Made by a program: the position numbers and the translations under genes. 64,000 nt of DNA. Source: Tortispora ganteri (taxonomy: Eukaryota). Under the pieces are notes generated by a model. That model did not search any database. It saw only the letters and a list, made by a program, of their open reading frames with translations, and was not told the origin of the DNA. The DNA lies in assembly GCA_003707115.1 (NCBI GenBank), contig PPNB01000002.1, positions 124,001 through 188,000 of the forward strand, read 5' to 3'. Of the stretch, positions 12,578 to 52,386 are shown piece by piece (the first letter of the stretch is position 1; the number at the start of each line of letters is the position of its first letter).

Positions 12578-13204
12578 ATGCTTAACGCAATGCAAATTAG
12601 AAGGTCCAGTGGTCTTTTGCGTCAGCAGCGGAGACGTATGTTTTCTGTGTCTGTACTAGCAAGGCAAGCTCCACCTGCCGGATTCCGACCAGCTCCTCAA
12701 CCGGAATGGACTTCTGAATCTACTATGGACAAAGCCGGTCACACATTTCTTTTAGCAGAGATGTTCCGAGGAATGTATATTTGTTTAGAACAATACTTCC
12801 GTGCTCCATACACTATATACTATCCATTCGAAAAAGGCCCTATTTCACCACGATTTAGAGGTGAGCACGCGCTACGACGATATCCTACTGGCGAGGAGAG
12901 ATGCATTGCATGCAAACTCTGTGAGGCTATCTGTCCTGCTTTAGCGATTACTATTGATGCGGAAGAGCGAATTGACGGGTCTCGCAGAACTACGAAGTAT
13001 GACATTGATATGACCAAATGCATCTATTGCGGTTACTGCCAAGAATCCTGTCCTGTCGATGCCATAGTTGAATCAACTAATGTTGAGTACGCCACTGAGA
13101 CTCGCGAAGAGTTGCTTTACAACAAAGAGAAACTGTTGGCTAATGGCGATAGATGGGAACAAGAATTACAGAATGCAATCAACGCCGATGCTCCATACCG
13201 CTAA
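12578..13204 (+). CDS. Complex I Fe-S subunit NDUFS8/TYKY (23 kDa)
   Basis: Two 4Fe-4S motifs, [12 protein letters not shown] and [12 protein letters not shown], plus [10 protein letters not shown]. Confidence 0.98.
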
Positions 13205-13354: not shown

Positions 13355-14359
13355 TTAATACAACATTCTGTTAGCCTTATCTTCAATTGAGATTTGAAGA
13401 TTGTTTAGCACCTTCAACATATTTTTATCTTCGTAGTTGAAAAATTTAGCGCCGTTCACATTCTTTTGCGAGGAAATATCATTAATGATGCCTTTCAGGA
13501 TCTTGGCTGTTTCTTGTGCACTTTTTCGTTTCGTTGTGTTAGATGCTGTGGCTTCTAGTACAGCATACTGCTGCATTTGGTCAGCTAGCTTGTACAGTTG
13601 ATATACATCGCCGCTTGCTTCCCATGATATTCTTAGCATCTGGTTGAAAACTTTCATGGTGCATCCCAGTGTATAAGAGTCTGTTCCAAGTTCTTTTGCC
13701 CGTTCAAATAAGGCTTCAGCACTTGAAAAGCTAGAGAATTTGTCATACATAATCTCAATTGCAGCTGCTAGTAAATCGCCATATGCAGCCTCAAAAGTTT
13801 CCCGTTCCTGTAGTTCTGGGTCAAATAATGCACGAAATACGTGCTCTTCCATATAAGCATGAACAGCTAACCTGTCAGATAGAGACTCCATCTGATCTCT
13901 ATGGTACTTGACGAGGTTCTCAACTTTAGAGCTAAGAGCATGTTGCTCTGCACTAAGTTCTGAGGCCTTTTCGAACATTCTAGGACCTTTCAGTTGGTGC
14001 TTACCTTGCTCCCAGTCTTTCATGATCATACTGAGTAGTTCCTCTGGAGCTGTTGCTTCGACGGATTTTGGTGGTTTTGCTGGTGCTGACTCTAGTGCCT
14101 TAATCGAAGATAATATAGCATCAGAATAGCGCTTTTTTATACCTGTATCGCTAAATTTTCTAGATTCTTTTGAATCGGTCAGATTTGCAGCGTTATTTGC
14201 GGGTTCAATATCGTTGATAAGTTCTTTAAGCGATTTCTCTTGTCCCGGTTCTCCACCAGTGTCGGAACCGTCTTCCTTACGTTTGATTCTAGTAGTAGAG
14301 AGCTGTCTATTTAATATTCGAGTTAGAATTCGAGATCGTACTATATGTAACTGAATCAT
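13355..14359 (-). CDS. Mitochondrial Mtf2/Nam1-like protein
   Basis: Basic presequence from ATG 14359. C-terminal LFERAKELG.DSYTLGCT.KVFN.ML..SW pattern. Confidence 0.65.
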   Translation of the reverse strand: MIQLHIVRSRILTRILNRQLSTTRIKRKEDGSDTGGEPGQEKSLKELINDIEPANNAANLTDSKESRKFSDTGIKKRYSDAILSSIKALESAPAKPPKSVEATAPEELLSMIMKDWEQGKHQLKGPRMFEKASELSAEQHALSSKVENLVKYHRDQMESLSDRLAVHAYMEEHVFRALFDPELQERETFEAAYGDLLAAAIEIMYDKFSSFSSAEALFERAKELGTDSYTLGCTMKVFNQMLRISWEASGDVYQLYKLADQMQQYAVLEATASNTTKRKSAQETAKILKGIINDISSQKNVNGAKFFNYEDKNMLKVLNNLQISIEDKANRMLY

Positions 14360-14430
14360 TAATAGTGTGTTAAAAGATAAATACGTTTTATGCAAATATA
14401 ATTAATAAATGGCATGTAAGGTGGGTGTGG

Positions 14431-14438
14431 CCGGGTAA
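14431..14438. promoter_or_regulatory. Reb1-type site CCGGGTAA
   Basis: Exact match to the yeast Reb1 consensus in the 96-bp gap between the monooxygenase stop and the Mtf2-like start. Confidence 0.45.
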
Positions 14439-14455
14439 GCCCACCCTGAAAGCTA

Positions 14456-15748
14456 TCACTTGTAATGATCCACAATATCTTCAACGACATCATTTCCTGT
14501 AATGGCTAGCACAGATAAAAGGCTATCACTTAATCCGTGGGTCGATTCATTGCATCCTAAGAGCCAAACCCCAACTCCTGGAGCGATTTTGGCTTCGTTT
14601 CGCGGTGTCAGCTGGTAATTTCTTGTAACCGGCAGAGTTTCTAGGTCATATATAGTTTCGCAACCTTTCAACAGGTTTCTCACAGCAGTAATGCGGTCGT
14701 AGCCTGTAGCACACACTACTACATTATATATGTTCTCAACACTAGAGTTATTTGACTTCAATGAGAGGGTTACGTCTTTTCCAGTGAGACGCGCATCAGA
14801 AACTTCACTTAAGTTCAGCACTCTTCCTCGGTTGGTCTGACCAGGAAGCTTTTGCTGATACAAATGTTCGTATATCTGATCTATTAGATGTGGACGCACG
14901 ACGCTATAATTAGTGGACTTCAAGCTTTTAACCAAATAGTCCCTTGTCTTCTGGGACTGATTGTAGAAAGCGGTTGTAGATTCTGGGTCAAAAATCTCGT
15001 TAACGAAAGGAGAATCGTCGGATGGTCGAAGTGCATATCCTCTAATTATTAAGTCAACCTTGGCATTAGGAAACCTTTCAAGCAAATCCATGAATATCTC
15101 AGCTGCAGACTGGCCTGATCCAACTATAGCCACAGATCCACCCCCGCAAAGACGATCATTTATATGATCAAGGCTGTACATGTATTCACTAGAATGCAAA
15201 ATTGATCTATTAGAAGATCTTATTTTCTGCAGACAGTCTGGGAAACTCGGCTCTCCACCTATGCTAATTGTGATATTTCGAGCGGCTCGGTCGTGCGCCT
15301 TTCCTTCCTTGGAATACGAATGAACTCGAAACCCGGTAAGCGTCCCATTGTCCAGAATTGGCACTATCTCGTTGCACTTTAGTCCGTAATTTACTTTTTG
15401 TTTGACTCTACTTGCACACCATCGCATGTAGTCTTCATACTCTACCCGATAAGGTAAGAAAGTTGACATGTTGATGAATGGCACGAGCTTTTGATTCTCG
15501 AATAGATAGTTCAAAAAAGTGAAAGACGATTTTGGATCTCGAAGTGTAGCAAAGTCTTTCAGAAAAGATATTTGCATCCTTGCAGAAGGAATTAACATTC
15601 CCGAATGCCAGCAAAAAGTATCTTGAGCCTCTATGAACTCGACATACTTCAAGGATTTCGGATTGGTCTCTGTCAAATAAATGGCGAGTGCTAGGCCTGC
15701 AGGCCCGAAACCTACACCTATTAAATCAAGGCAGTCTTCAGTATTCAT
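14456..15748 (-). CDS. L-ornithine N5-monooxygenase (SidA/Sib2 family), first step of hydroxamate siderophore synthesis
   Basis: FAD motif GVGFGPAGL, WHSGMLIP..RMQISFLKD, NADPH motif VGSGQSAAE, PSDDSPFVNEIF, TNYSVV, CATGY, HGLSDSLLS. Confidence 0.96.
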   Translation of the reverse strand: MNTEDCLDLIGVGFGPAGLALAIYLTETNPKSLKYVEFIEAQDTFCWHSGMLIPSARMQISFLKDFATLRDPKSSFTFLNYLFENQKLVPFINMSTFLPYRVEYEDYMRWCASRVKQKVNYGLKCNEIVPILDNGTLTGFRVHSYSKEGKAHDRAARNITISIGGEPSFPDCLQKIRSSNRSILHSSEYMYSLDHINDRLCGGGSVAIVGSGQSAAEIFMDLLERFPNAKVDLIIRGYALRPSDDSPFVNEIFDPESTTAFYNQSQKTRDYLVKSLKSTNYSVVRPHLIDQIYEHLYQQKLPGQTNRGRVLNLSEVSDARLTGKDVTLSLKSNNSSVENIYNVVVCATGYDRITAVRNLLKGCETIYDLETLPVTRNYQLTPRNEAKIAPGVGVWLLGCNESTHGLSDSLLSVLAITGNDVVEDIVDHYK

Positions 15749-15912
15749 AGTCGGGGATCAATTAGTCGTGCGCCACTCTAAAACCTTCCAAAAAACACAG
15801 CTGCTTGTATATTCACTTTATTATGACGTATGGCTAGTCTTCCGAGAGTAATATGGTCTATGCTTAAGGTTCATACTGCTAAAATTGTTAGATCACCCGA
15901 ACGAGTTTTAGA

Positions 15913-16007
15913 CCAATAGAAGACTCCCATTCCATCTGATAGCTCCCCTTTACCTTGTAACATCAAAAGTCTATTATTTCTCGGGGATTTCCTGCTTAAA
16001 TTTATCT
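15913..16007. promoter_or_regulatory. Iron-GATA-like and CCAAT elements in the siderophore bidirectional promoter
   Basis: CCAAT at 15913-15917, ATCTGATAG at 15934-15942 (resembles the SreA/Fep1 ATCWGATA element), and TTATCT (AGATAA on the minus strand) at 16002-16007. Confidence 0.55.
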
Positions 16008-16038
16008 ACAGAGTATTCGCCTTCATAACTCAATTATT

Positions 16039-19000
16039 ATGTCTTCTAACGTAAGTGCCTCTCTATTGCCATTTAATCGACATTTGCTAACATTTTAAGT
16101 GCACCTCATTTCCATCATTGGTCAGTTCATGGGATCGCAGAGCTCCTAGTTATACCGCGTCGTCTCGCGTCCGGTCTATAGCCGCGAATAGATCTGCCGT
16201 GTTGACTACATGGAGCCAATTCCTAAGAAGACACACATATTTCGATGATGTATCATTTATAGAGTATTTTAGTAATGAATACTATTACTGTACATCATGT
16301 CACGACTCAAGTTCTGTCACTGAAACTCCAATTACAAATCTGCCTTCACACGGTTATACTTGCATTTCATGGAACAGAGAATTCGAGCATTCAGGGTCGC
16401 ATCTGACTCTCAATATCTCTTCGAATTCGGTTTTGTTGTCTTCATCCTCGGAAATAGTCACTGAATTGCTGATTAATGATCTCCTTGACCAGTTCCTCTT
16501 CTTATATGGTCAACAAACATCCCCAATGTTGTCTATAGTCAACAGCAATCCTCCGATTCTACCATTTGAACACCTAGTACATCAAAAGATTTTAGCTAAT
16601 AATTCTTCTGACGTTGCATACAAGCACTTATGGTATAATCACTCTCTATTTCAGCTTTCCTTTAGTGAACTAAATGCTATATCAACTTCCTTAGCGGCAC
16701 TCATACCCGAGAATTGTGCTACTCCTATTCCAATTATGATTCCTCAATGTCCCGCTTATTACCTTTCTCTAATTGCAACTTTGCAAGTTGGTCTAGCTTT
16801 TTGCCCCGTTCGGACAGACTCTCCGCAGACCCGCGTTCACTTTATTTGCAACGACGTTAAAGCTACAGTGGCTTTTTGTACCCCTGCATACCGTTCTCTC
16901 TTTCCCTCGCATATCCATATTATAGAACTAGATGAAACCCTCAACGACTTTCAACATTTCCTTACTAAAAAAACTTCTTCTGTGCCTAAATCTGTCTCAC
17001 CAGATTCGTGCGCGTACGTGATGTACACATCAGGCTCTACAGGTGACCCTAAGGGTGTCCAAGTATCTCACGAGAATATAGTGCAAACCTTTATAGGACA
17101 TGATAGCTTTGTTCCTGGCTTTAAAACTATGTTGAATTTTGCTGCTCCTACATTTGACGTCTCTGTATTCGAAATACTATATCCACTGTGGAAAGGCAGA
17201 ACACTTGCTTCGTGCGATCGGTCACTGATGCTTACAGATCTTGAAAACATCATTAATACCTTAGAAATTGATGCAGTAGAGCTCACACCTACTGTTGCTA
17301 GCATGCTTGATGCGAAGAAAGTACCTAACCTGAAGGCCCTACTGACTATCGGAGAGAAGCTCAATGACAAAGTCATCGCAGAATTTGGTGATTCATGCCT
17401 TTACAATTGTTACGGCCCGACCGAAACTACAATTCAGTGTATTGCTACTTTCAACCCGGTCTTAAAGGAATCTAGCGGGTCGGAAATTGGTACTGTCTTA
17501 CCTGCAGTAGGTGCTCTGATTATAGATCCGAACGATTCGTCAATTCTTCCCTTGCCCTTAGGCTGGGTAGGAGAACTAGCAATTATAGGCCCACAGGTGT
17601 CTATGGGCTATTTAAATCGACCACAACTGAATGCTGAGGCATTCATATGCCATCCTACCTACGGAAAGGTGTATCGCACAGGCGATCTATGTCGACTAGG
17701 CGAGCATGAACAAATGTTTTATCAGAGACGCAAGAATGAAGATCAAGTGAAACTGAGAGGTCAACGAATAGAGCTTGGAGAAATTGAAAGTGCTATAAAT
17801 TCATCTATGAAAGGTTTGAAACTCGTCGAGAACTGCAATGGAATATCAGCTGTCTCAGTTATAGATGGGAACCTGTATGCTATTGTTGAGACCCACGATA
17901 CTGCAACAATCACATCTCGGATATCCAAAGTTCTTCCTTCCTATATGATTCCTTCTAAACTAATTACCGGTAAGGTTCCTTTGCTCCCTTCAGGTAAGCT
18001 TGACCGAAAGGGCGTCGTGGCTGCCTTAAAACAAATGACACCTGCACCTAGAGGTGATCATTCGGAGGAGAATCATTCTAGCGAAGATTCAATATGGTCT
18101 TTAGTGTCTACTGAAGCTTATAAACTTGGTGGAGTTTTTCCAACCAGGAGAAATTCGCTGATAGCATGTGGAATTGACTCTATACGGACTATCCGCCTTG
18201 CTCGCCAACTGAAATTACACGGAATACCTATCAGTTCCTTTGCAAAACTTTACAGTTGTAATACTTTTGATGATCTTTATTGTTTATTAAAGAGTTCGGA
18301 ACTTAAAGATACTGATCCTTCACCGAATCATTCAGATAATTGTTCTCCAATTCAAACGGGATTATTACTTCAGACCGTCTCTGATGAGACCTTATATTGG
18401 AATGTTTGTTCTTTTGAAATATCTTTAAAATATATGGTATCCGATATTGTTAAAGCTATTTTGCATATATTTAATGCAAATTCTATATTTCGCACAGGTT
18501 TTAATGTTTCTCTTGATGACTTATGCATACGAAGGATTGTTCATGAGACGTTTCCTGATAAATATATTAATGTTGTTGATATTAAAGATATTGATTCAGT
18601 TGTACAGAGTACTCTGCATTATCTCAGAAGTCAAAATTTTAATTGTGGACCAGCAGCGAGGGTTATACTTTCAAAAGGAGCGAACTCCTATCGCTTGGAA
18701 TTCATAGCACATCATGCTTTATATGACGGTTGGAGTTTGGAGCTTTTAGTTTCAGACTTGACTAGTCTTCTAAGCAACGATGAAGTTTTTATTCGTCCTC
18801 AGTACAATGAATTGCTGTTCTCAGAAATTTATAGTGTTGCTGATGATTCTTATTGGGAAAGTCTTATGAAAGGATACTCGAGCAGCCTTCCTCTTAAGAA
18901 TCTGTTAACCGATCAGCACCTTAACAACAGATTTAGTATTGTTACATATCCGCTTGCTGAAAATTTGGCTGAGACTCTAGCTAAAACAGCGAACGATTTG

Positions 19001-22000
19001 CAAACATCTAGACAAGTCTTATATTATTATGCCTGGTGGCGTGTCATGACTTCACACTATCAGATCAAAGACTTAGCCTTAGCTATTGTGGCCACTGGAC
19101 GAAATATTCCTGTACCAGATATAGACTCCATCTATGGTCCTTTTGCTTCTGTTTTGCCGTTGCGTTATAGCGCGCAAGGCGGCAATGATATCTTTAGCGC
19201 AATTCGCCAGTTTCATATACAATGTCAGGAAATGAAACTGCGACATCGACCTTCGACTCAAGTCGCCTATATAATGCGACACCTGGATATAATATTGGCC
19301 TGGCAAGAGAATATTCTCGGAATAGACTCTGAATTGGTGTCTTTAGTGAGTTCAAATGATCATTTGGAGTATCCATTATTTATAGAGATAATGGTCTCTG
19401 AAAAGCAATTATCGAACAAGATAACATTTAATCAGGAAGTTTTTTCTCGAGAGACGGTAACGAAGTTTATTAAGAACTTTCATACTGCACTTCTAGAGAT
19501 CTGTGAAATGGGTTCTGGCTCTTCGACAACAGGAATGACTAATACTCTGAAGAAGAATGAAGATCGTGCATATCCTGCCATATACTCTCCAGCTCTGACA
19601 TCTACCCCTAGTCAGAATAACTCGAATGGATTTGACATATCTGAAGCTCGTTTTCATACTAGCTTGCAGTACAAGAGGCAGGTTACTATCAGAATTATCT
19701 CTGAAGTTCTCAACTTGAACCAGAATACTCTTGATTATTATGTTCCTTTGAAATATCTGGGCTTCAGCTCTTTTTCTGCTGTCTCTGTGGTTAGAAAACT
19801 ACGGCTGGAAGGAATAGCCAACTTATCTCTTCTTGATGTACTACGAGCTGAGTCATGCCAAAACATTATTGATCTTGTTTTGGGGTCAGGTGTACCTACA
19901 TCATTTAAACTGCCATCTATTCCACTGAAGGAGGATTTATTTTGCAATGAATCCAGTTCCTTGACATATGACATGGTTTTTAAGACCTTTTCCGATGAAA
20001 ATTGCATTGAAGCAATCTATCCCTTGACTTCAATACAAAAGGCAATGCTCGCCAGGTACCTAATAGATAACCGAATCTACATCAATAAAGCATCTTTGGA
20101 ATTTGATGAACCTGTTCAGCTCTCTCGATATATGAATGCATTGGATTTGGTTTCTTCTATTTTCACTGTATTAAGAAGCAAATTTACCGTCTACAATGAT
20201 ATGGTTCACCCCTTTCTTCAAATCGTCTATAAACAAAGGAGTCTGAAATTACTCGATTCAGATGTATTTTCCTTATCTGAGTGGGATTTCATGGAACATC
20301 CTTTAGTATTTGTCTCGAAATGCAGTTTAGCTCCAGATACGAATTTTAATGAGCTTGTGTGCTACTTTCACCACTCCTTGTTGGATGCAGGATCTTTTCA
20401 TAAGATAATAGATACTATCAATTTGGCTCTTTCTAACAAAGAACTACCTGTTATTGATGACGAATACGTTCCTGCTTTGAATCTGGTACTTAACCTAGAC
20501 AGCGTGAACCACTTAGAGCCTTATGCTTTAATTGCTGACAAACTCTCGCCTACTTTAATTGAAGAGTGCAAATATGCTCAAATTTCCAACTCTAACAAAG
20601 ATCCAATTGATTATATTGAGTTTTTCATTGATAAATCAATTGTTGACACAGTTCTTAAACGTCTTTCTACGTCTTTGACTGACGTTGCAATTCTCTTATG
20701 GACATGTGTTCTTCAACAAGTTCTTGATAAAGAGCATGTCACATTTGGCCTAGCTCATTCTTTAGATTATCTATCCGAAGAAATATCTTCACCTGTTGGT
20801 TGTTTTTTGAACATGTTATCTCTTTCAACCGAGATTGAAATGGGACAATCTATACCTGATTTTTGTGACTCAGTGAATAAGCAGATATCGGAATTGTTAG
20901 CTGCTTTTCCAGTCTCCAAGAACACATTGCAGCAGTATTTAGCTGTCTCGAACCTTTATGATACTGCAATAATCGTTCAACCTCTTCAGGCTTCTATGCA
21001 TCCCGCAAATGTGAATTCTATTGAGGGAATAACTGATTTCAAGGCTTTATTTGAAATAGAACCCTTAGAGGATAATGTAAAGTTTACTCTGCAATTAGAT
21101 ACATCTATCGGGTTGAGTTTCTTGTTTGAGATTGTCAAGCAGTTCACCATTAATTTCTTTGATCTATGGTTTACCAAAGTTAATGTCTATGACTTGTTAA
21201 CTGTTCTTGAATCTCTTATAGAACATAACGTCCCTGATACTAGTATTCCCGAGTCAACTGGACCATCCATAGAAGCTAATAGCTTTCTTATATCTGATAA
21301 TCAAGTATACAGAGACATTTTCCATGCAACTAAAGGTATTTCAAAGTTACCTGATGAGTATTTCACTCCCGAAATCACTTTCAAAGAGCTTGGAATTGAT
21401 TCAATTCTGATGGTATCACTTTATTCACGCCTAAAGGTTTCTTATTCTCATATTTTGCCTAATACTGTTTTGTCTGCAAAGACTATATCTGAGTTATGTT
21501 GGCTAATTTCTCAGAACAGCGATCTACCGGTACATAATCGTCATGTTTCTGACAATTTGGCAAGTGTTGTTGTGGAAGAAACAGAAACCTCTTTGTCTTA
21601 TGCTACTCATTCTGTATCGCAAGGTTTGCTTTATGACTTTCTGAAGTCAGAAGGTAGGTATGGTTATGCGCTCTTTAACTGTTCATTGAAGCTTCCTCTT
21701 GGATCTACTATTTCAGCGAAGGATAAATTACTAGACTCATTGGTCGAATTATGTAAGTTGCATCCAATCTTGCGGACAGGGTTCCTTGTTGGTGAAAGGT
21801 TCAAGGAGCCGTTATTTAGTGTGGCTAAAGCAATTTCAAGAACTGAAATCTCCTCTTTAATACACTGGGTTTCTCTTACGGATGAAAATAACGATTATGA
21901 ATTGCTATCTGTGTATAATTCCATTATTGAGGATCTTTCTGGTCCTCAGTGGCGAATTTTAGCTGATATGACATGTCTAAATCCTTTGAAATTTATATGG

Positions 22001-25000
22001 TATGTCAATCATGCTATAATGGATGCTCATTCTTTTAGCGTGATTTTACAAGACTTTAGTCTACTTGATCAAGGACTGATTGAGAAAAAGTACGATATTG
22101 GACACGGAGCTATATACTTTTCTGAGAATTTTGACCGGCAAGTTGATTCTGCAGATGCTTACGAATGGTGGAAAGAGTATTTGAATCCTAATAGCTTTAC
22201 TGTTTTTCCAACTCTTACCCCCACTTTCAAGCAGAATGGATTTAATCAGGTTTCAGGGAATTTGGATATTCATGTGTCTATGCTCTCAAGTGTTTCTTCT
22301 GGTATACCGGCTAGTGCTATTCTAGCCACATCATGGGCATTGACTCTCGGTCATTTACTTGGAACAGACCTGGTCTGTTTTGGATTCTTGCAGAATTTTC
22401 GAAGTTCTGCAGTGGTATTAGACAACTGTGAGTTACCTTGCTTCAAGGTTCTTCCTTTTGTTTTGTCGCTAGAAGGACAAAATAAGGAAATTCTCCAGCG
22501 AGCGAGTGACAATCTCTCTTCACTAGCTGATCATGGCAGGGACTCCCTTTCACACGTGTTAAAGCATATTGGATTGGGTTCTGAGGTTCTTTTTGACACA
22601 CTTCTAACTATACAAATAGACGAGCTACTCGGTCAAGATAATGCTACAGTCCAAAGCAGTTTCCGATGTCACTCCTCCGGTAGTCGTGACAAATTTCCTA
22701 TCTCTATTGAGCTCTATCTGCGTTCGAGTGGCTCTATGAAATGCAATATATTTTTTAATATGGAGAAACTTTCGGAGGATAACGCCAATGTTATCATGAG
22801 CATATTCGAGAATATCGTGAAGCATATTGTCGCTAAGCCAAACGAGTTAGGACTTACTGTTTTTCCTGAACTTTCTCTTTCGATAGTTCCACCACAAATA
22901 AAAATGTATGATACATCTTGTACGTATCTCCCTGGATTGCTTCTTGACAGTTTTACAACTAAAAGGAAAGAAGTGGCACTTGAGATGGTGTACGACTTTT
23001 CTGAGAAGAGCGTGGCTATGGAGTATTGGACTTATAGTCAGTTGTACCTTGAGTCATTAAAAGTTGCAAACTTTCTGGTCTCCCTTGGACTCCCTAGAAA
23101 TAGTCCTATTGCTCTTTGCTTTGAAAAATGTCCTTATGCGTCATTTGCTATGGTTGGTGTTTTGTTGGCAGGACATGCTATTGTTCAACTGGATGCTAAA
23201 GCCCCAGATGAGAGGAAAAAGTACATAATTAGCGACGTTGGTTGTAACTTATTGCTAACATGTACTAACCTTTACGAAAATTTGAGCAATTTAGACGTCT
23301 CCGTGGTAAACATTGAAGCAGATCAAAATGTACTTCGAAGCTCCACTACAATTCCTACTGTTAATGCAAGACTTAACGATATCTGCTACATTCTTTATAC
23401 GTCTGGATCTACAGGGAACCCTAAAGGATGTATTATATCTAACGAAAATGCTATTCAAGGGCTGCTGGCATTTGAGGATCAGTTTAAATCTCGCACTAAT
23501 TCCGAATCGCGACTTCTAGCATTTGCTTCTTACCATTTTGACGTCAGTATTCTTGAACACTTTTGGTCTTGGATGACGGGTATTGTACTAGTTACCTGTT
23601 CGCATGATTTAATTTTAAGAGATTTGTCAGAGACCTTAAAGACTTTAAGAATTAGTCATGTTGATCTGACACCTTCATTGGCGTCTACATTAAGCCCTGT
23701 AGGGCTCAGAAACCTACAAAATGGAATATTCATTACTGGAGGTGAGATGTTAAAACGTGAAATTCTTGAAAATTGGGGCTCTTTTGGCTGCATATACAAC
23801 GCATATGGACCTACTGAGGCTACAATTGGTGTAACTGTCAGAAAACATGTGTCATGCGGAGCTAATCCAAATAATGTGGGTCATCCATTTGCTAATGTTG
23901 GCCTTCTGATACTCAAGCCTGGTACAACTGATATAGTCCCTCGGATGGCTGTTGGTGAAGTGTGTCTATTTGGCCCTCTTGTTGGTCAAGGTTACGTTAA
24001 TCGCCTTTCGGAAACAAAAAAATCCTTTGTGCAACTAGATCTGGCAGACTCTACAGTGTATCGTACTGGTGATATTGGAAGGATACTTGCTGATAACTCT
24101 TTGTGCATAATTGGTCGTATAGACTCTCAAATCAAATTAAGAGGCCAACGATTGGAGGCATCAGAAGTGGAAAGTGTTATCAAATCCTCACGGAATGATA
24201 TAACAGATGTATGCGTACAAACTGTGCGCAAAGGTTTGTCTGACCAGTTAGTGGCGTATATTGTTCTTGGCACTGCTAGTTCTAGCGATCCAGAGATATT
24301 AAGCATGAATCAAGAACTTACATTTATTGCTGATTATGTTAAAGATGTTTGCTCGAAAGCTCTGCCACCCTACATGATTCCGTCCTATGTTGTATTTTTG
24401 ACACGTTTGCCCATTACACGAAACAACAAGACCGACAAAAAGCTTCTCAATGAGATGTTTCTTTCATTAAACAGCTCTTTTTTTAATAAATCAGAGAGCA
24501 TGTCTAGTGCTCACGATTCATTTACGTTGACCGATACTGAGGCTAAAATTCTTGAATGTTCAAGTTCTCTGCTTGATATTTCTACTGAATCGATTAGTTC
24601 ACGTACAGTATCTTTGTTCGAACTCGGTTTAGACTCTATACTGGCAATCTCTCTAGCTAACAGATTAAAACCACATTTCAAAAATGCGTCTGTTCCTGTT
24701 ATAATGTCCAATCCGAGACTTTGTGATCTATCTGCAGCATTAACCTCAGACATTGGTTTCAACGAATTGGAGAATATTGACATTGAAGTTACAGATTCTG
24801 ATATAGAACTAAACAATGATTTTACGGTGGACTATATAATGCGGTGCTCAGCTGTACAGGAAAACATTCTGGCACACTACTTTATATCAGACTCATCTGG
24901 TTACAATACACTATTTGAGTATTCTTTGCATGAATCTATTGACCTTGAGAAGCTAAATCGAGTCTTTTCTATTCTAGCTAAACGGTGTGAGATCCTAAGA

Positions 25001-28000
25001 TCAGGGTTTACTGTAACTTCAACTGGTCCCGTTCGAGTGGTGTACAAGGATTACAGTCCTTCAGTGTGGTTGGTAAATTCTTCTCAAGGCGAGGTTAATC
25101 AGTTTCAAGGTTTCTCAAATCTTGAGCTCCCTCCTTATAGAATTGAAGTTGTTCAATATTTGGAATCAGAAAAGATTTTAAGAATTTACTTATTTCATGC
25201 ACTATTTGATGCAGGCACTGTGCAACTTCTAGAGCAACGCATATGTGGTTTGTACCATGATCTCAATTACGATTTCCAAGACACTTATCAAACTGCATTG
25301 AAATCTGCTTTGAGCTATAATACTCATGCGTCAAAGAAATTTTGGTCATCTTGTTTAGCTGAAACCCCGTTACTAAATTTCAAGAACTTTGCCGCTGCAG
25401 GTGATAATTCGGAGTTTCTGACTAGTACAGTGGATATCAATATCAATTCACTGCGTAAAAAAGCCAGAGATTTCTCGACTACATCTAACATTATGCTCCA
25501 TGCAATTTGGACGTTATATTTAGGAATTCTGTGCAATGGTAGTATGGTATCGTATGGAACCATATTTTCCGGAAGACATGGTGAGAGAGTATTTGACGCT
25601 GAAGAAGCTTGTGGACCTTTGTTTAATATTTTACCAATGTCTATAGGTTCTTTAGATGGTGCATCTTTGGCTTCTTTATGTTCAAAGATTCACAATTATA
25701 TGAGTTCATGCTATCCATTTTATGCTACCAAACCTGCAGATATAAAGAGATGGATTGGAATTGATATGAATATCAGACTTTTTGATATTTTATTCACTGT
25801 TATTCCAGATTATAAGGTGCCCGATGATTTTAGTATCTGGAACTCACGCCGATCAGTTTCGTTTTCGTCAACGTTCCCTCTTGCAATAGAGATTTGTATA
25901 GGAGAGGTCTTAGAGGTTACAATCTCTATAAACAGCTCTCTATGCGACAAAAAAATTGGTATTATTATATTGGAGGATTTCACTGCTCTTTTAAAGCAAA
26001 TAATTCTATGTGAATCTATTAAACCGCTCGATGTGTCACTGCCTAATAGTAAAGGTTTACTCTCTCCTTTACTAACTATCCATAATAACACACACCAAAC
26101 AAATACTGAAAACTACCTGGAAAAGAATGAAGCACAATTGTCTATGACTTTATCTCCTTCATTGATCAAGATTATCAAAGCTATTGCTGATTGTCCTGAA
26201 ACTATTGGGCCTGCTACAACACTAATCAGCCTTGGCTTTGATTCTTTGTCCCTAGTCACTCTCTGCGCCCGAATCAGACGTACTCTCAGTATAAATATTC
26301 CTTTGAAAGAAGCTTTGTCATTCAAAGTGCTTGCCCATTTTCAGCAGTACTTGAACACACACTATGATTCCGGTTCAGTGCCTGGTGAAACCTTGGCGAA
26401 GAGGATTTCCTCGCTCGACAAGATACCATGCACGCCTATGCAGGCCTTTATGGTGTCAGAGATGCAAAAATCTCTCAATCACAATTATGTTACGCATGTC
26501 ACTTTTTCTATAAAGAGAAATATCGATATAGGGCTCCTGGAAAACTCATGGAGGACGGTTATTAATACTAATTCCATTTTGCGAACCTCTGTATCTGAAT
26601 TTGGTTATGATGATTTAGATATTTACAGTTCAGGTTACTACCTTAAAGTCGGTGCTCAGTTTGGTGAGAATAGTCCTATATTTAGGCGAATTTACTGTTC
26701 TGCAGATAACATTGAGTGGTTCAGGTCGAGCCTTATCGAATCTGAAAGCATAGTATTCCATGATGACGCACCTTTGTTAACTTTATGGCTTCTTGATACT
26801 GGGGATAGCTACCATCTTCATTTAAGAATGTCTCATGTAATATATGATGCTATTTCATGGAACTTAATGTTCTCTGACGTTGAAAAGTGCTACTATAATA
26901 CATGTGAAACCTACAAGTCACCTGATTTTTCGCCCCTTCTTGCACGAATACTAATTGAAAATGCATCTACTGATATTAATGAAGGATTAGACCTATTTGC
27001 AAACGCTCATGTTATCTCATTTCCGAAACTTGCCGAAATAGATCGAATTCCTCTTGCTGGTCATTATAAGGTCAGCATGGTTTCCAATGTCTCTTCAACG
27101 TCTCTGAAGAACTTTGCACGAGTATCTGATGTTTCGATTCAAGTTATTGCTTATTGCTGCTGGTCAGTGGTGCTGAAATCAATCTGTTGTGATTATAAAG
27201 ATCAGTTTTCGCCGATCTTTATGACAGTATTAGCCAATCGAACCACTGAAGAGGAAATGAATATGATGTTTCCGGCTATGAAATCATCAGTTCTTTATGG
27301 AGAAACTGGTGGTACAGTCAAAAGTATGCTCTGCTTTATGCAAAATCTAGTAGATGTCACAAGGCAGGGCAATATCGATATCCGGGAGATTATGAAGAAA
27401 TATACCACTGATAATTCGGCTGAAGTTGATACTCTGTTTTTATACCAGGCTCCTATATCTGTGAAACAAGCTGAAAGTAGTCTTTGGACAGAATCATTTA
27501 GCAATTCTGAAGTGCAGTACGCTGTTGCTGCTGAAATGCAGATAGTTGGTAATCAGATCATGTGGAGAGCAGCTGCGAATGCACTGTATTTAACTGAAAC
27601 TGACTTGAATATTCTGGTCAGGCAGCTTGATGCTGTTTTGCATAATATTATATCAATAGACAATGACCTTGGTGTTGACTCTCTAACTGACTATGATACT
27701 TCACTGCTATCTATTTTCAATCCAATAAAAAGTGATCAAGATCAAAATTTTATTATAGATTTTGACGCTATGAATGAGCACAGAAATGAGACAGCTTGTT
27801 TGGAAGTATCAAATGCGATTGGCTGTGAAGATCTACATTCATTTGGTGATATTCTGCAAGATGTGGATTTAATCAGCAAAAACATAAACATTGCTATGTC
27901 TAATAAACACGTGAACCAAATTATAATTATTTGCTCAAGTGTTTATCGCCAATGTATTCTTTCTCTTGCTTTATTACAGAGCAATATCGAGAATATATTC

Positions 28001-30700
28001 ATTGCTGACGAGAAATGTGACTTTTCTGTCATTGAAAGTTTAGACGACTCTTGTCTGTTTGTGACAGACTCATTAGAAGTTTGTGAATTACTGAATGAAC
28101 GTGTTCTGAATTATACTAGTTTATTGCATGAGAATGAATATGCAATCCCTGCCCCGCAGTTGCGCAACTTGAATCAAAAATTCTATATTGCACCCCTAGG
28201 CCATGATTTTTCTCAGATTAATCCTGTATTAAGCAGTGATTTGATAGCTACAATCAAAGAGTTACGCTCATCTCTCAGCGAGATTAATGTTAAAGTGGGA
28301 TTGCCTTTTGAATTAAGAATACTTATGACTTTGGCCATGTGGAGTATAGGCATGAAGGTGATTCACACTTCTTGGAAATTTGATGCACGAATATTGAATG
28401 AACTAATCGTGGAATACGATGTTAAGGCTTTATCTTGTTCATCTGAAGTATCAGCGTGTCTGAAATTTGCCAATATACAACAATTGAACTTTCTTATCTG
28501 CGACAATAAAGTGCCATATTCATGGCAATTGTATCGATTACCCGCAAATGAGCGCCATTCTTTTTGGCTTTGTCATAGTTTGAATCAGTGGCCGACGCTA
28601 TTTGGTAATATCGCATTGGAACAATGCAACTGGGTTTATTTGAATTCTGTTTTGCCGAAACCATATAGCATAAGGTCGTCTGATGGGCCTAGTGAAATGA
28701 TTATGCCGATGTTTACTGAAGGAAAGTTTTATTACAACTCTCTTCCTTTAGATTGGAATCTTAGAATGACTAGTAAGAGTTTAGTAGCTCGACCTGAAGA
28801 ATCTGCGGAAAGTTCGATTCAGGCTATGCTTCTTAGTTCATTGTCAGACCTTGACTCGATGTGTTGTTTGATCAATGAGCAGTGTGATGAATTGTTTATA
28901 TATTTTACTTTGAAAAACCATAAGGATGACTTGGATGAAGTAATTCATGCTATGAATGAAGTACTTATAAGAATTTCTGAATTGGTTTTGAAACGTGTTC
29001 CGAAGAAAGTGACTTATTCTTTCGTTGATTTTATAAGGCCGTTAACTGGAGGCTATGAGTTTGATTATATAAGCAATAATTTTGGAAGCCGAGAAGTATT
29101 TCTTGATGATTTGGTTTGCTCTTTTGATAAATCTGAACGGAAATACTGGGATTCAAAGCTAAAGTCATTAATAGCTGCCGTGATTCCTGAATTTCGCTTG
29201 ACAGACATGACCGATAACATTAGTGTATTTGATCTAGGACTTGATTCTATACGAATTCTCAGAATTGCGTCCAAATTGACTGACGATGAATGCCCAATAT
29301 CCGCCAGCGAATTGATAGGTTGCAGATATGTTACCAAAATGGTATCTCTAGCACATTCCAGATACTTACAGAAACCTGGATTGTCTCACACAATCATTCC
29401 TGCTGCTGAAAGTGCATTTGCACAACTTGCTACCAGTTGTAATATAAGTGAGTTTTGCTCGCACGTCCTGCCACTATATGCTGGGCAAGTATACACTCTT
29501 TCTTGCTGGGAATGGAGCAATCACGAAGTTTTCCTCTACAAATTTGAGTATTTCATAAAGAATATAACTCCATCGGCGCTAGAACGAGCATGGTATGAGC
29601 TTGTTAATTGTCGAGCTATTCTGCGCACACTGATCTGCAATAGCTTATCTGTGCGAAATCCAGTTGTGCAAGGAGTGCTAAAGCAAGGTCAATATGTAAA
29701 AGGGAAACCGAATTTGAAGAATCCATTCTGTGAGTTTGAAATCATTAGAAGTGACAACAATGGAACCACATTTAGCATTATTCTTCATCATGCGCTATAC
29801 GATGCATGGTCACTTCATAGCTTACTGACTGACCTTGAGAAGTTATGCAATAACGAGTCTGTCAAAGACGATATTGATACAACTCTTGTGCTTGCTTCTC
29901 AACGCATGTTTCGAGATAGTAAATCAAGGCTATTCTGGAAAAACTATTTGAGTGGGACGTGTGCAATTAGCTTTGAATGTTCCAAAGGTTCCCCTATGAC
30001 TAGAGTAGGTCTTTTCAAAGAGCTTGGAATACCCAGGTTGCGTCAGATCGAAAAACTGGTACAGGAAAAACGCGTTTCGGTCCAGGCCTATATCATGGTA
30101 TGTATAGGAAGAGTTCTGTTGCATTATTCTTCATCATTTGAGCCGCAACTATCAGCTGATAATATTATCATTGGACTGTATTACTCTGGACGGTTTGGAC
30201 AAACGGTCAATAATGTGGATGCATCAGGCATCCCCACTATGAACGTTCTACCGTTGGTCGTGCAAACGAAAAACAATGTGTTTAATGCTAGTTCCTCAAT
30301 TGATGACTTCTTAGCAGAAATATCTGGGAAGGAGTTTTTCGATATACAAGAGTTAAAAGAATGTGCAAACATTACTGGGCCTATGATCTGTGTGACTGTC
30401 AATTTCCTTCCGGAGACGCTAGGAAGCCCACACTCATCTGTCAAACATTTACGTACTGAAGTGCACAAACTGAATTATATTAACGGGAATGATTCTGCTA
30501 TTGGTGAAGTCGCGCACTTAGAAGACTTAACGGCTAACGATGCAGTAAGGATGGATCTCGATATTGAAATTAAGATAGATCGCGATCAAGATGGGCTCGC
30601 TGTTGGCCTTTTCAGCTGGGAAGAAGTTTGCAACAAACAGGAATTGGAAATATTAACGGAGAAGATTAACGAAGAGGTCTTTAAGGAACTACATACTTAA
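16039..30700 (+). CDS. Ferrichrome-type siderophore NRPS (SidC/Sib1/NPS2 family), ~4870 aa; exons 16039-16050 and 16100-30700
   Basis: Two A domains (YTSGSTGDPKG, YTSGSTGNPKG; YGPTE; YRTGD), six T motifs (GIDS, GFSS, GIDS, GLDS, GFDS, GLDS) and six C motifs (xHxxxD). Ends in a C domain with no TE. Lies divergent to the ornithine monooxygenase. Confidence 0.93.
16051..16099 (+). other. Spliceosomal intron (49 nt, phase 0) in the NRPS 5' end
   Basis: GTAAGT donor at 16051, GCTAAC branch at 16086-16091, AAG acceptor at 16097-16099. Splicing joins ATG TCT TCT AAC in frame to the long ORF. Confidence 0.85.
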
Positions 30701-30830
30701 AAACTGAATATATACTGGATCAATGATTTAGGCCTGCTTTCATTTTAGCTTTGTATTTAAAGTTCACGTCCCCGAAACCCGCACCCACTTCCTCCCGGCT
30801 TTTTTAACTGTTCAACAACGCATCGCAAAT

Positions 30831-31856
30831 ATGAGCGCTTTTTTAACCAGCTTTTCGCAACTAGCTGAAACAAATATTTGGCTCACAGTGTGTGCGTCAG
30901 TTGGAATTATTGTCTTAACGCGCGTTCTGTTGACGTTTGTGTCGTTCTTCCAAGACTTTCTCACACCTGGCACCAGCCTAGTAAAGTATGGCGCTGGTAA
31001 AGGTTACTGGGCCGTAATCACTGGATGCACGAGTGGTATAGGTGAAGAATTTGCACTTCAATTGGCTAAAGCGAAATTTAATGTACTTTTGATCTCGCGT
31101 TCTGAATCAAAACTGCAAAGCATGGCGGCCCTTATCGACTCTGAGGTCTCGGTAGAGACTGGGTATCTTCCAATTGACTTTAACAACGCGTCCGAAGACG
31201 ATTGGGAAACGCTCAAACAAAGAATTACCGAACTAGATGTTGCGGTCTTGATAAATAACGTCGGAGTATCACACAGCATTCCAGTACCGTTCTTAGAGAC
31301 TTCAATTGAGGAGATGGAAAGCATAATTAATGTTAACAATACTAACACATTAAGAATCACCCAAATTGTCGCGGAAAGAATGCTCTCTTTGAAGACCAAA
31401 GGCGTTCGTGGACTCATTTTGACAATGGGATCATTTGCCGGCTTGTATCCTACACCGTTACTTGCAACTTATTCCGGTTCTAAAGCATTTTTGCAGAACT
31501 GGTCATCTGCCCTCGCTTATGAGCTCCAACCGTACAATATCGATGTCCAGTTGGAAGTCTCATACCTTGTTACTTCTGCTATGTCGAAAATTCGACGTCC
31601 TTCTCTCAGTATTCCTAACCCTAACACCTTCGTTCGTGCTACGTTGAGCAGTCTTGGACGGCGTCGTGGCGCCGTCGGTAGATGGTGCTCTTCTACTCCC
31701 TATTGGGCGCATGCGGTCATGGAATTAGCTATTGAACAGCTATTTAGCGCGTACAGCTGGGTTGTAATTAGCATTAATGGACGTCTACATGAAGATATTC
31801 GAAAGCGTGCCCTTAAAAAGCGTGCACAAAAGCAGGCTGCCTCTAAATCGGAATGA
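30831..31856 (+). CDS. IFA38: Very-long-chain 3-oxoacyl-CoA reductase (SDR)
   Basis: WAVITGCTSGIGEEFA, LINNVG.SHSIP, PTPLLATYSGSK, H.DIRKRALKK. Confidence 0.93.
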   Translation: MSAFLTSFSQLAETNIWLTVCASVGIIVLTRVLLTFVSFFQDFLTPGTSLVKYGAGKGYWAVITGCTSGIGEEFALQLAKAKFNVLLISRSESKLQSMAALIDSEVSVETGYLPIDFNNASEDDWETLKQRITELDVAVLINNVGVSHSIPVPFLETSIEEMESIINVNNTNTLRITQIVAERMLSLKTKGVRGLILTMGSFAGLYPTPLLATYSGSKAFLQNWSSALAYELQPYNIDVQLEVSYLVTSAMSKIRRPSLSIPNPNTFVRATLSSLGRRRGAVGRWCSSTPYWAHAVMELAIEQLFSAYSWVVISINGRLHEDIRKRALKKRAQKQAASKSE

Positions 31857-37352: not shown

Positions 37353-38129
37353 TTAGTCGGAATCACCTGAGTCGTCTATGCGGTAAACAAGATCGACCCA
37401 GGTTTGACCAGCATGGTCACAGTTTGAGGTGCCGCAGTCTGTGAATCCATTTTTTATGTAAAATGGAGCGACTTCTGGGTGCGCTATTAATATTACTTTG
37501 TCAGCAACAGAGTGCATACCCATTCGCTTGGTGTACTCGTTGAGCAAAGAAGATCCTATATGGGCACTCTGATAGTCGGGATGGACAGCAAGAGAATGGA
37601 TTGCAATGGATGTACCGCCATTTATATGCCCTCTGTAGTCGCCCTTAACGGGTCTTCCGTCAACAAGGTCGGGGATCTCCATTGATTCATTGGTAATGGT
37701 GTCTTTGTCAGACTGCGTAGCGATTAAATGAGCAATAAGTTTTTCCTCTCTGTCGATCTCGGAAGGATAAGCGGCTGCGTAAATGTCAGATGAGTTTATC
37801 TTTAAAGATATAGAATTTCCTGAATCACGGTTATTATTTTCAGTTTCACTTGAGTCGGTGTAGGCACCGAACTGATCGTCTGATGTGTCGTGGTTTTCTT
37901 CAGAGTCTGCGTTCCTAGAATCGGTGTAAAATTTAGCATCTTGAGGCTGCAGAGACTGATTACGCAAGAAGACTCCTAGAGATAATTCGCTACATACGCT
38001 CAGACGGTACTGAATTTTAGCTTTTGAAGCTCTTTCGGCGGGATTCGTGAAAGCGAGAGTCTCTAGCTCAGCTGCCTTATCTGCGTCCGATCTCAATAAA
38101 GGGCGTACAACGGCGTGTTCGGGTAGCAT
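37353..38129 (-). CDS. PAA1: Polyamine/arylalkylamine N-acetyltransferase (GNAT, Paa1-like)
   Basis: VRPL, ERAS..KIQYRLSVCSELSLG, GH..GGTSIAIHSLAVHPDYQ, LIAH..V.PFY.KNGF. Confidence 0.85.
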   Translation of the reverse strand: MLPEHAVVRPLLRSDADKAAELETLAFTNPAERASKAKIQYRLSVCSELSLGVFLRNQSLQPQDAKFYTDSRNADSEENHDTSDDQFGAYTDSSETENNNRDSGNSISLKINSSDIYAAAYPSEIDREEKLIAHLIATQSDKDTITNESMEIPDLVDGRPVKGDYRGHINGGTSIAIHSLAVHPDYQSAHIGSSLLNEYTKRMGMHSVADKVILIAHPEVAPFYIKNGFTDCGTSNCDHAGQTWVDLVYRIDDSGDSD

Positions 38130-42700: not shown

Positions 42701-42798
42701 ATTGCAGCATTGGAAGTGGAACCAGGATCATGTTTAGGTTCACTTTCAGAGGTAGGAGCCGGGTTATCCTTAACATCGTGTGCCATACCTGAGGACAT
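39757..42798 (-). CDS. Large low-complexity protein with coiled coil, possibly PRRC2/BAT2-like
   Basis: ~1013 aa from ATG 42798. KKFKPASVNQIFL, WD..EDDDDEW..TIEFADGTKV, and an E/K/R-rich coiled coil. Family call is tentative. Confidence 0.5.
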   Translation of the reverse strand: MSSGMAHDVKDNPAPTSESEPKHDPGSTSNAAITAGSSVVAGIPKPGSKKFKPASVNQIFLANSQSGSKSPKSASPSPSPAMAHATLSASPSALHPGSLNAKPLNPTGSIIATGHYRLSPMRHDSLSKPKPPAEESAWKSPKSAAKELTPDSQQPLIKPVLQSELKTTQNKSKDSTDSAFTASPSTAAATSHHQHLTWDSAEDDDDEWDNTIEFADGTKVIVPDITSPIVPKEPSIIEAKATRDPSEPVWNSIPTIPKPKSIFSPETVVNAAQPPTKQLHQLATKQKPYQLKHEYDRDYNHGHRPLYNDAADRNNSTRGDGFVTKDRSQLQGRSISPREFKNRRNSSANSREERLEARRFREHHSPIKSSFESLADHYAVPKDMSLAEMAIQQQKEMKEAQKEARRRKEEEWAKEKAHQEEVRKKRLEELEKRLEQQQPKQNASPTSVETNTVAETSMTSSTTSSQNAANFEAVRSIFGHGPKGATSKDSPSWKQALATGATHHEKASKELWGYNAANKHGERHEMDSGKDAHGRYGPLDSASRHSASHRGPFERRRFSGSGSTGDRKMILDRDFRKQTGSKFEESWSRLHKFDGKRPDHDIQHRGDGAHAKQFFSNIQTNANSFVASSGHDHHSRQPTHQNPFLPTQDPSSQSVASRGASRFFPTGMRSDAPEQPTFVSTGSSGNVSAESIPALVAGPQSRITNSSTSNQAFMSGSAAITGEDHQIPRVVLPRMGPASGVADFGGSGPFRGIPMGHAQGASQITSIIPGTVDPNAGLFLSAGDQDVLAANQQNYYVAVGPQTYEGNSANKAVEKASSKVAELYAGTAIPAYAGLRHEEASNPAALMEMRSEGIDQDSLFAQTDFSYYPVHINTGIKDISEESILDERNIVFHVKPLPINFSTVSPIHTPSYYGIAMKPEEEAVAGRSYKIYIPGQSAKFVPIEYDKSKYLYPPSKHETRIRKMMSYGPGSGLGYAVSGPTPGGYGSGSAKGSRKPRTVGSKKKLNPKSGYYQ

Positions 42799-52059: not shown

Positions 52060-52179
52060 GGTTGCGGCCATATCCAGCAGAAAACACCGTTCCCCGTCCG
52101 ATCAACTGTAGTTAAGCTGCTGAGAGCCTGCTTAGTACTCTGGTGGGAGACCACAGTGGAATCGTAGGTGCTGCAATCT
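52060..52179 (+). rRNA. 5S rRNA gene, copy 1
   Basis: 120 nt, GGTTGCGGCCATATC...CCGTCCGATCAACTGTAGTTAAGCTG...GGTGCTGCAATCT, closely resembling S. cerevisiae 5S. Followed by T-runs; TATATATA at 52031-52038. Confidence 0.97.
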
Positions 52180-52266: not shown

Positions 52267-52386
52267 GGTTGCGGCCATATCCAGCAGAAAACACCGTTCC
52301 CCGTCCGATCAACTGTAGTTAAGCTGCTGAGAGCCTGCTTAGTACTCTGGTGGGAGACCACAGTGGAATCGTAGGTGCTGCAATCT
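52267..52386 (+). rRNA. 5S rRNA gene, copy 2
   Basis: Identical 120-nt sequence, followed by ATTTTTGCTTTTT (Pol III terminator). Confidence 0.97.

Follow-up and report, generated by a model that had tools for sequence, protein, structure and literature searches.

A divergent monooxygenase and synthetase gene pair

The stretch of DNA analysed here (the window) comprises 64,000 nucleotides of the yeast Tortispora ganteri (GenBank assembly GCA_003707115.1, contig PPNB01000002.1, positions 124,001 to 188,000 of the forward strand), and all coordinates given below are positions within it. It carries a divergent pair of genes, one encoding a SidA-type monooxygenase (minus strand) and the other a giant nonribosomal peptide synthetase (NRPS; plus strand), with start codons 290 bp apart. 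Based on our analysis, we suggest that, quite likely, the two genes make up the core of a pathway to a hydroxamate siderophore of the ferrichrome type and have been vertically inherited in an early-branching budding yeast. The gene models are as follows:

14456..15748, minus strand: SidA/Sib2-type L-ornithine N5-monooxygenase, 430 amino acids (aa), intronless
15749..16038, no strand: divergent promoter spacer of 290 bp, read from the sequence
16039..16050, plus strand: NRPS exon 1 (MSSN), from the sequence and the N-terminus of the T. caseinolytica ortholog
16051..16099, plus strand: NRPS intron of 49 nt (GTAAGT...GCTAAC...AG), read directly from the sequence
16100..30700, plus strand: NRPS exon 2, 4866 codons and a stop, from the open reading frame (ORF) and its translation

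The NRPS gene contains an uninterrupted plus-strand frame extending from 16091 to 30700 (4869 codons). Translation starts at the ATG at 16039, which is followed by TCT TCT AAC and then by the intron, and the frame is rejoined at 16100, giving the coding sequence join(16039..16050, 16100..30700) and a protein of 4 + 4866 = 4870 aa. This splice is confirmed, because the ortholog of Tortispora caseinolytica begins with MSSNCTSF.

The monooxygenase matched family PF13434 (L-lysine 6-/L-ornithine 5-monooxygenase) with an E-value of 2.3e-107 and 359.5 bits against a cut-off of 21.3; its residues 6-351 align with profile positions 2-338/339, i.e. the match is full-length. The translation contains the motifs GVGFGPAG, GSGQSAAE and CATGYDR, which are also conserved in T. 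caseinolytica and which we take to be the FAD/NADPH dinucleotide-binding glycine motifs and the ATGY motif.

The best matches of SidA, the NRPS and the housekeeping protein Nup170 were all found in T. caseinolytica NRRL Y-17796 (85%, 81% and 95% identity, respectively), where the three orthologs are located on a single 3.11-Mb contig. Both members of the pair have full-length orthologs there: CANCADRAFT_99623, likewise of 430 aa, and CANCADRAFT_1757, an NRPS of 4853 aa versus 4870 aa in the window; Kominek et al. (bioRxiv 10.1101/399394) count the two as SidA and SidC homologs. As none of the matches reached 100% identity, the host is to be regarded as a sister species of T. caseinolytica. The next-best matches of Nup170 came from Lipomycetaceae and other budding yeasts (38-43%). 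The genus Tortispora belongs to the Trigonopsidales within Saccharomycotina, and the placement of the host among early-branching Saccharomycotina, proposed in the preliminary description of this DNA from its letters alone, is upheld by these protein matches. The same description had reported a SidA-type gene and an NRPS of about 4870 aa lying head-to-head, 290 bp apart, amid housekeeping genes, and this layout was confirmed by the ORFs, the Pfam matches and the reading of the splice.

Architecture of the synthetase and its predicted product

The domain map of the NRPS was obtained by comparing 19 overlapping 500-aa pieces of the enzyme with Pfam, and by using hidden Markov models (HMMs) made from its own domains. 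The Pfam families matched were AMP-binding, PP-binding and Condensation. The resulting order of adenylation (A), thiolation (T) and condensation (C) domains is A1-T1-C1-T2-C2-T3-C3-A2-T4-C4-T5-C5-X-T6-C6, i.e. two A, six T and six C domains plus a domain designated X:

16589..18019, plus strand: A1, adenylation domain of module 1, code DVFELICIQK, predicted Gly (Pfam, HMMs, tree, Table 2 of PMC2644324)
18104..19516, plus strand: T1 (Ser in GIDSI) and C1 (HHALYDG) (Pfam, HMMs; C1 clade support 100)
19679..21229, plus strand: T2 (GFSSF) and C2 (HHSLLDA), no A domain (Pfam, HMMs, motifs)
21314..22843, plus strand: T3 (GIDSI) and C3 (NHAIMDA), no A domain (Pfam, HMMs, motifs)
22967..24448, plus strand: A2, adenylation domain of module 4, code DVLDIGAIGK, of the N5-acyl-N5-hydroxyornithine (AHO) type (Pfam, HMMs, tree, pocket residues)
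24539..26014, plus strand: T4 (GLDSI) and C4 (FHALFDA) (Pfam, HMMs, motifs)
26153..27664, plus strand: T5 (GFDSL) and C5 (SHVIYDA) (Pfam, HMMs; C5 in the C5 clade)
27665..29149, plus strand: X, 495 aa, read as a degenerate module-6 adenylation domain (dA6) (position, weak A-domain similarity)
29150..30697, plus strand: T6 (GLDSI) and terminal C6 (HHALYDA), presumed cyclising (C6 clade support 99)

Core motifs A3, A4, A5, A7 and A8 are intact in both A domains, the phosphopantetheine serine is kept in all six T domains, and xHxxxD(G/A) in all six C domains. All of these motifs are equally kept in the NRPS of T. caseinolytica, which has the same domain order. The public model of the latter lacks 16 residues of A2 (opposite exon-2 residue 2373) that are continuous in the window, and probably contains a wrongly predicted intron at this point. 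As the gap between C2 and T3 is just 28 residues, module 3 has no remnant of an A domain; the degenerate domain lies instead between C5 and T6. Upstream of A1, the first 163 residues of exon 2 (16100-16588, plus strand) are 83.5% identical to T. caseinolytica; this N-terminal extension matched no family, zf-CHY being reached at E 0.011 only.

This layout fits none of the ferrichrome synthetase types I-VI as they are described in PMC2644324. In Schizosaccharomyces pombe, the sib1 and sib2 genes likewise form a divergent pair with a shared promoter, the transacetylase gene being separate and differently regulated (according to PMC2644324 and PMC9344042), and Sib1 (type III), by its published description, also combines two working A domains and one dead A domain with six T and six C domains. 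However, the order in Sib1 is A-T-C-T-C-dA-T-C-A-T-C-T-C-T-C, with the dead A domain in module 3, whereas that of Tortispora lies in module 6. The published codes of Sib1 AMP1 (DVFEIIAIHK) and AMP3 (DVLDIGFIGK) and the two Tortispora codes belong to the same lineage.

The NPS2 ferricrocin synthetases of Pezizomycotina (types IV and V; C. heterostrophus, F. graminearum) resemble the Tortispora enzyme in that A1 and A2 fall into their module-1 and terminal (AHO) clades and C1, C5 and C6 into matching clades, and the AHO code of FgNPS2 AMP3 is identical to that of A2. They differ in having kept the module-2 (Ser) A domain and, in type V, also the module-3 (Gly) A domain, and overall identity is 24-28%. 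Within Saccharomycotina, the nearest relatives of A1 and A2 were found in the NRPSs of Lipomycetaceae (Lipomyces japonicus and Limtongia smithiae), a family reported to make ferrichrome (review PMC10833146). These enzymes have residue Q331 of A1 in common with Tortispora but keep four A domains, with an eroded A-like domain after C5 in L. japonicus and a 240-aa remnant in Limtongia.

The 17 pocket positions listed in Table 2 of Bushley et al. 2008 (PMC2644324) were read off via the A4, A5 and A10 motif anchors. The mapping can be regarded as validated, because, applied to the Exserohilum and Fusarium orthologs, it returned the ChNPS2 and FgNPS2 rows as published. The pocket of A2, FADVLEWDTIGYATIGK (10-residue code DVLDIGAIGK), equals that of FgNPS2 AMP3, which is assigned to AHO, at 17/17 positions. 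The pocket of A1, FADVFEYETLIYCTIQK (10-residue code DVFELICIQK), agrees with ChNPS2 AMP1 (Gly) at 13/17 pocket and 8/10 code positions, and with Sib1 AMP1 (Gly) at 12/17 pocket positions. As the two codes match the module-1 (Gly) and AHO codes of the NPS2/Sib1 lineage, the predicted product is ferrichrome, cyclo(Gly3-AHO3). The assignment to a ferrichrome pathway made in the preliminary description is thus backed by the combination of a SidA-type monooxygenase with an NRPS bearing an AHO-type A-domain code.

We propose that the 430-aa flavin monooxygenase would hydroxylate L-ornithine at N5, and that a transacylase encoded outside the window would convert the product to AHO. The 4870-aa NRPS would then assemble the cyclic hexapeptide non-linearly: A1 would load glycine onto T1-T3, A2 of module 4 would load AHO onto T4-T6, and the terminal C6 would cyclise the hexapeptide to ferrichrome. 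In this scheme X would be what remains, without catalytic activity, of a sixth adenylation domain, retained as a folded spacer. The template for the loading scheme is Schwecke's model of Sib1, as summarised in PMC2644324, where ferrichrome is described as the product of Sib1, an enzyme whose working A domains number two against six T and six C domains; inter-module loading is reported as shown for SidC (PMC10192304).

It seems rather unlikely, although the chance is a real one, that the pathway yields a different compound of the ferrichrome family, which would arise if A1 loaded Ser or Ala or if the acyl group were not acetyl. At 4 of the 17 positions (243, 320, 322 and 331) the A1 pocket is unlike the published Gly rows, and the Q found in place of H at position 331 is shared by the Lipomycetaceae Lipomyces and Limtongia. 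Furthermore, Bushley et al., in the sections of PMC2644324 on which we draw, consider 10-residue codes weak predictors of substrate in fungi and could not rely on the code to tell fungal Gly, Ser and Ala domains, and no transacylase for the pathway was found among the genes of the window. On the other hand, with a single non-AHO A domain the same residue is expected at all three variable positions, and PMC2644324 states that Gly occurs at least once in all known ferrichromes. The placement of A1 in the module-1 clade, assigned to Gly, also argues for glycine.

The domain between C5 and T6

X corresponds to residues 3856-4350 of the exon-2 translation. It had no Pfam match at E<=1, and a phmmer search against 119 NRPS homologs returned nothing significant (best E 0.12). 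In a phmmer search of 1.84 billion representative proteins, its sole match was the T. caseinolytica ortholog, to which it is 75.9% identical, a value comparable to those of the C domains. A single-sequence AlphaFold2 model of X was unusable (predicted local distance difference test score, pLDDT, 34.8).

More distant similarities point to adenylation domains. By BLASTP, residues 379-494 of X align with the C-terminal subdomain of A2 (E 0.009). An hhalign comparison of the two-species X profile with a 59-sequence A profile scored 35.1 (P 8.4e-4, probability 24%), the alignment being colinear over the FD-x-S helix region, whereas the controls stayed below this (C profile, 21.2; reversal of the query, 14.2; best of 30 column shuffles, 19.8), with P values of 0.039-0.53. 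A greedy alignment of X with A domains runs over the whole domain length, with all catalytic motifs replaced. The language-model look-alikes of X were AMP-binding clusters throughout the matches listed (scores 0.92-0.94), with few shared features, as is expected of a distant relative.

The position of X is also informative, as the slot between C5 and T6 holds A domains, or what is left of them, in several homologs. It is occupied by an intact A6 in Basidiobolus, by an A domain in Saitoella that shows the A3-A5 motifs and whose code is AHO-like, by the eroded A-like domain in L. japonicus, and by stubs in Limtongia (240 aa) and Neolecta (116 aa). In Pezizomycotina NPS2 enzymes the same slot is a linker of about 48 aa. 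Taken together, the position and the BLASTP, profile and language-model evidence indicate that X is very likely a decayed, dead module-6 adenylation domain.

A lineage-specific domain of different origin or function would account for the missing Pfam match, the empty phmmer results beyond Tortispora, the hhalign probability of just 24% and the low pLDDT of the AlphaFold model. We consider this fairly improbable, as X sits exactly at the A6 slot of its homologs and shows two colinear local similarities to A domains. Moreover, its hhalign score against the A profile exceeds those of the C profile, the reversed query and 30/30 column shuffles, and AMP-binding clusters are its only language-model neighbours among the matches listed.

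Some of the homologs deserve comment in their own right. The post-C5 domain of L. japonicus has lost the A3 motif and carries FE in place of FD. The public models of L. japonicus (residues 4918-5254) and Saitoella complicata (residues 4279-4634) stop within their post-C5 adenylation domains and are probably truncated. The homolog of Basidiobolus meristosporus (6834 aa) is fully colinear, (A-T-C)x6, with its modules at the base of each module clade, and thus shows the postulated hexamodular form in an extant species.

Having established X as a very probable dead A domain, one may go further and regard the Tortispora enzyme as a seventh, undescribed architecture of ferrichrome synthetase, in which the conserved dead sixth A domain, a fossil of the postulated hexamodular ancestor, would be kept by selection as a scaffold that lets the A domain of module 4 load T5 and T6 across modules. 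We put this forward tentatively, the odds being somewhat against the proposal in its full form.

Descent, constraint and meaning of the pair

In the A-domain tree (32 rows), A1 falls into the module-1 clade (support 99) and A2 into the module-4 clade (support 100). In both clades the branching order is Tortispora with Lipomycetaceae (92 and 93), Pezizomycotina, Taphrinomycotina and Basidiobolus. In the C-domain tree, C1, C5 and C6 were placed in matching clades (100, 81 and 99, respectively). In the SidA tree (32 rows), the Tortispora pair stands on a long stem (2.18) beside Dipodascopsis (Lipomycetaceae), outside monophyletic Pezizomycotina (support 99); a split with support 98 leaves it on the Ascomycota side and puts bacteria, a chytrid and Basidiobolus on the other. 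The GC content of the gene pair is close to that of its flanks. Together with the presence of an intron in the NRPS gene, a GC content that does not stand out and neighbours that are conserved housekeeping genes, these trees support ancestral retention by vertical descent rather than transfer.

The preliminary description had left the origin of the pathway as ancestral or transferred; the A-domain and SidA trees, which follow the species tree, favour the first. The comparison by A- and C-domain trees that it envisaged placed A1, A2, C1, C5 and C6 in module clades of the NPS2 lineage, and failed to group C2-C4 with their counterparts.

Regulation of the pair was considered from the 290-bp spacer, which contains one ATCTGATAG, one AGATAA and one CCAAT box:

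15913-15917, no strand: CCAAT
15934-15942, plus strand: ATCTGATA(G)
16002-16007, minus strand: AGATAA

The motif ATCWGATA occurs at 1 site in the spacer versus 0.05 expected per 291 bp (from the window), and Aft1-type sites were absent from the 290 bp. Motifs of the ATCWGATA type mark the targets of SreA, Fep1 and Urbs1, as described in PMC2610380, and the intergenic promoter of S. pombe sib1-sib2 is, according to PMC9344042, repressed by the GATA factor Fep1. The shared promoter in Tortispora would probably be repressed by iron through a GATA factor; for now, GATA/iron control suggested by the spacer motifs is a lead, not a demonstration.

Several findings weigh against the pair being a working, anciently retained ferrichrome core. 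Apart from the departures of the A1 pocket and the limited value of fungal codes discussed above, they include the clustering of C2, C3 and C4, which group together on long branches away from their positional counterparts; this may be an artefact or the result of gene conversion, both domain trees having been built by a quick search with no mixture model. The A and C trees comprise NPS2-lineage and early-fungal homologs and no NPS1/SidC-lineage sequences, so the NPS2 lineage is separated from the NPS1/SidC lineage by the pocket codes alone. The 64-kb window contains no SidL/SidF/Sib3-type transacylase, siderophore transporter or regulator. In the spacer, ATCWGATA is present once only, HGATAR is found 2 times versus 1.1 expected, and plain GATA counts are at chance level. 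To these points are added the rapid divergence of the pair, the excess of non-synonymous substitutions and a published siderophore assay, all of which bear on the question of whether the genes are still in use.

Between the two Tortispora species, SidA has diverged by 15% and the NRPS by 19% versus 5% for Nup170. As this is three to four times more, constraint on the pair must be weaker than on Nup170. Contigs from two DNA runs that span 14000-31000 differ from the window by substitutions only, with no indels; of the 40 differences listed, 38 fall in the NRPS, of which 24 are non-synonymous and 14 synonymous, with 0 stops (14 more differences come on top of the 40). In the overlay chrome azurol S (O-CAS) assay of Kominek et al. 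(bioRxiv 10.1101/399394), whose panel included T. caseinolytica, the portion of the text at hand attributes a strong signal to five ent-operon species only, and mentions none for T. caseinolytica. It could therefore be argued from these three observations that the pair is a relic heading to loss, either silent or without a useful product, like elsewhere in the subphylum.

We consider such a relic improbable. Identity to T. caseinolytica varies along the NRPS, being about 90% in the A domains, 80-87% in the T domains, 77-82% in the C domains, 75.9% in X and 66% in the C1-T2 linker, i.e. the A domains stand far above the linkers. All catalytic motifs are conserved in both species, and the contigs of the two runs contain no indel or stop. 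A gene whose 14.6-kb frame has stayed open in both species, and which has lost none of its motifs, is not a pseudogene. As for the assay, an intracellular siderophore would presumably be invisible to an overlay.

Across 14000-31000, the two-run contigs show about 50 substitutions in 17 kb relative to the window. At 15719-15831 they split into two alternative 113-nt pieces with 0 or 4 differences and depths of 76 and 57, which suggests a heterozygous diploid or two strains.

Horizontal acquisition of the pair from a filamentous ascomycete or a bacterium is very improbable, since the shortness of SidA (430 aa, like bacterial proteins of ~431 aa), its nearly equal identity to Pezizomycotina (43-46%) and Pseudomonas (42-43%) proteins and the lack of any close NRPS relative beyond Tortispora (next matches 24-28% identical) stand against a SidA tree that separates Tortispora from both groups, a sister position of both A domains to Lipomycetaceae that matches the species tree, a spliceosomal intron in the NRPS gene, a GC content close to the flanks, and conserved housekeeping neighbours located on the same T. 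caseinolytica contig.

The pair is flanked by an Mtf2-family ORF (13355-14359) and a short-chain dehydrogenase (30831-31856). The remaining ORFs of at least 120 aa with a Pfam match are housekeeping genes, e.g. those for Nup170, NAD kinase, Vps16 and a kinesin. The only GNAT gene of the window, at 37353-38129 (minus strand, 258 aa), 6.6 kb downstream of the NRPS gene, was considered as the pathway transacetylase and rejected as Paa1-like: it matched generic GNAT families of Pfam and not PF13523, and it most resembles clusters of polyamine N-acetyltransferases. A role in the pathway is therefore improbable. The ORF at 12578-13204 (plus strand) carries two 4Fe-4S ferredoxin motifs and presumably resembles the complex I subunit NDUFS8/TYKY, which would fit a yeast that retains respiratory complex I. 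Two ORFs, 39757-42798 (minus strand, 1013 aa) and 62829-63836 (plus strand, 335 aa), had no Pfam match at E<=1e-5, and those found at E<=1 were at chance level. Two 5S ribosomal RNA genes lie in tandem, 87 bp apart, at 52060-52179 and 52267-52386 (plus strand; Rfam 91.7 bits each). As they are located amid protein-coding genes, 5S genes are not limited to the ribosomal DNA repeat in this genome.

The retention of a ferrichrome pathway in budding yeasts is already known, and the present locus adds another species with the gene pair. The supposition that the gene might be catalogued already proved right for the sister species: homologs of SidA, SidC, SidD and SidF as well as of SidL in T. caseinolytica and Lipomyces starkeyi are listed by Kominek et al. 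(bioRxiv 10.1101/399394), who call them ancestral and who, in the parts of the preprint available to us, report their presence without architecture or product. The product was expected to be uncharacterised in this lineage, which held within the literature searched: nothing was found that treats Tortispora together with an NRPS, and, as judged from titles, abstract beginnings and passages, no synthetase study was found on Lipomyces and ferrichrome. What is new here is modest, namely the gene model, the non-canonical architecture with a probable dead module-6 A domain, the pocket codes and the trees that back vertical descent. Current views are not overturned, as both the presence and the ancestral origin of the pathway have been published for the sister species.

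Nevertheless, in recent reviews the whole of Saccharomycotina is still said to be without siderophore synthesis (PMC10500206; bioRxiv 10.1101/2024.08.20.608788). The genes of Tortispora and Lipomycetaceae show that this absence reflects a later loss rather than a character of the entire subphylum. On the wider reading tentatively put forward above, Tortispora would join the Lipomycetaceae as the second lineage of budding yeasts with genuine ferrichrome production. A small and compact yeast genome with a two-gene core might also lend itself well to work on the non-linear programming of NRPSs. The dead sixth A domain, in turn, would provide a handle on the loss of A domains from ferrichrome synthetases that retain six T-C units: the intact A6 of Basidiobolus and Saitoella, the eroded domain of Lipomyces, the dead domain of full size in Tortispora, the stubs and finally the bare linker of Pezizomycotina NPS2 would, on the same tentative reading, represent successive steps of such a loss.

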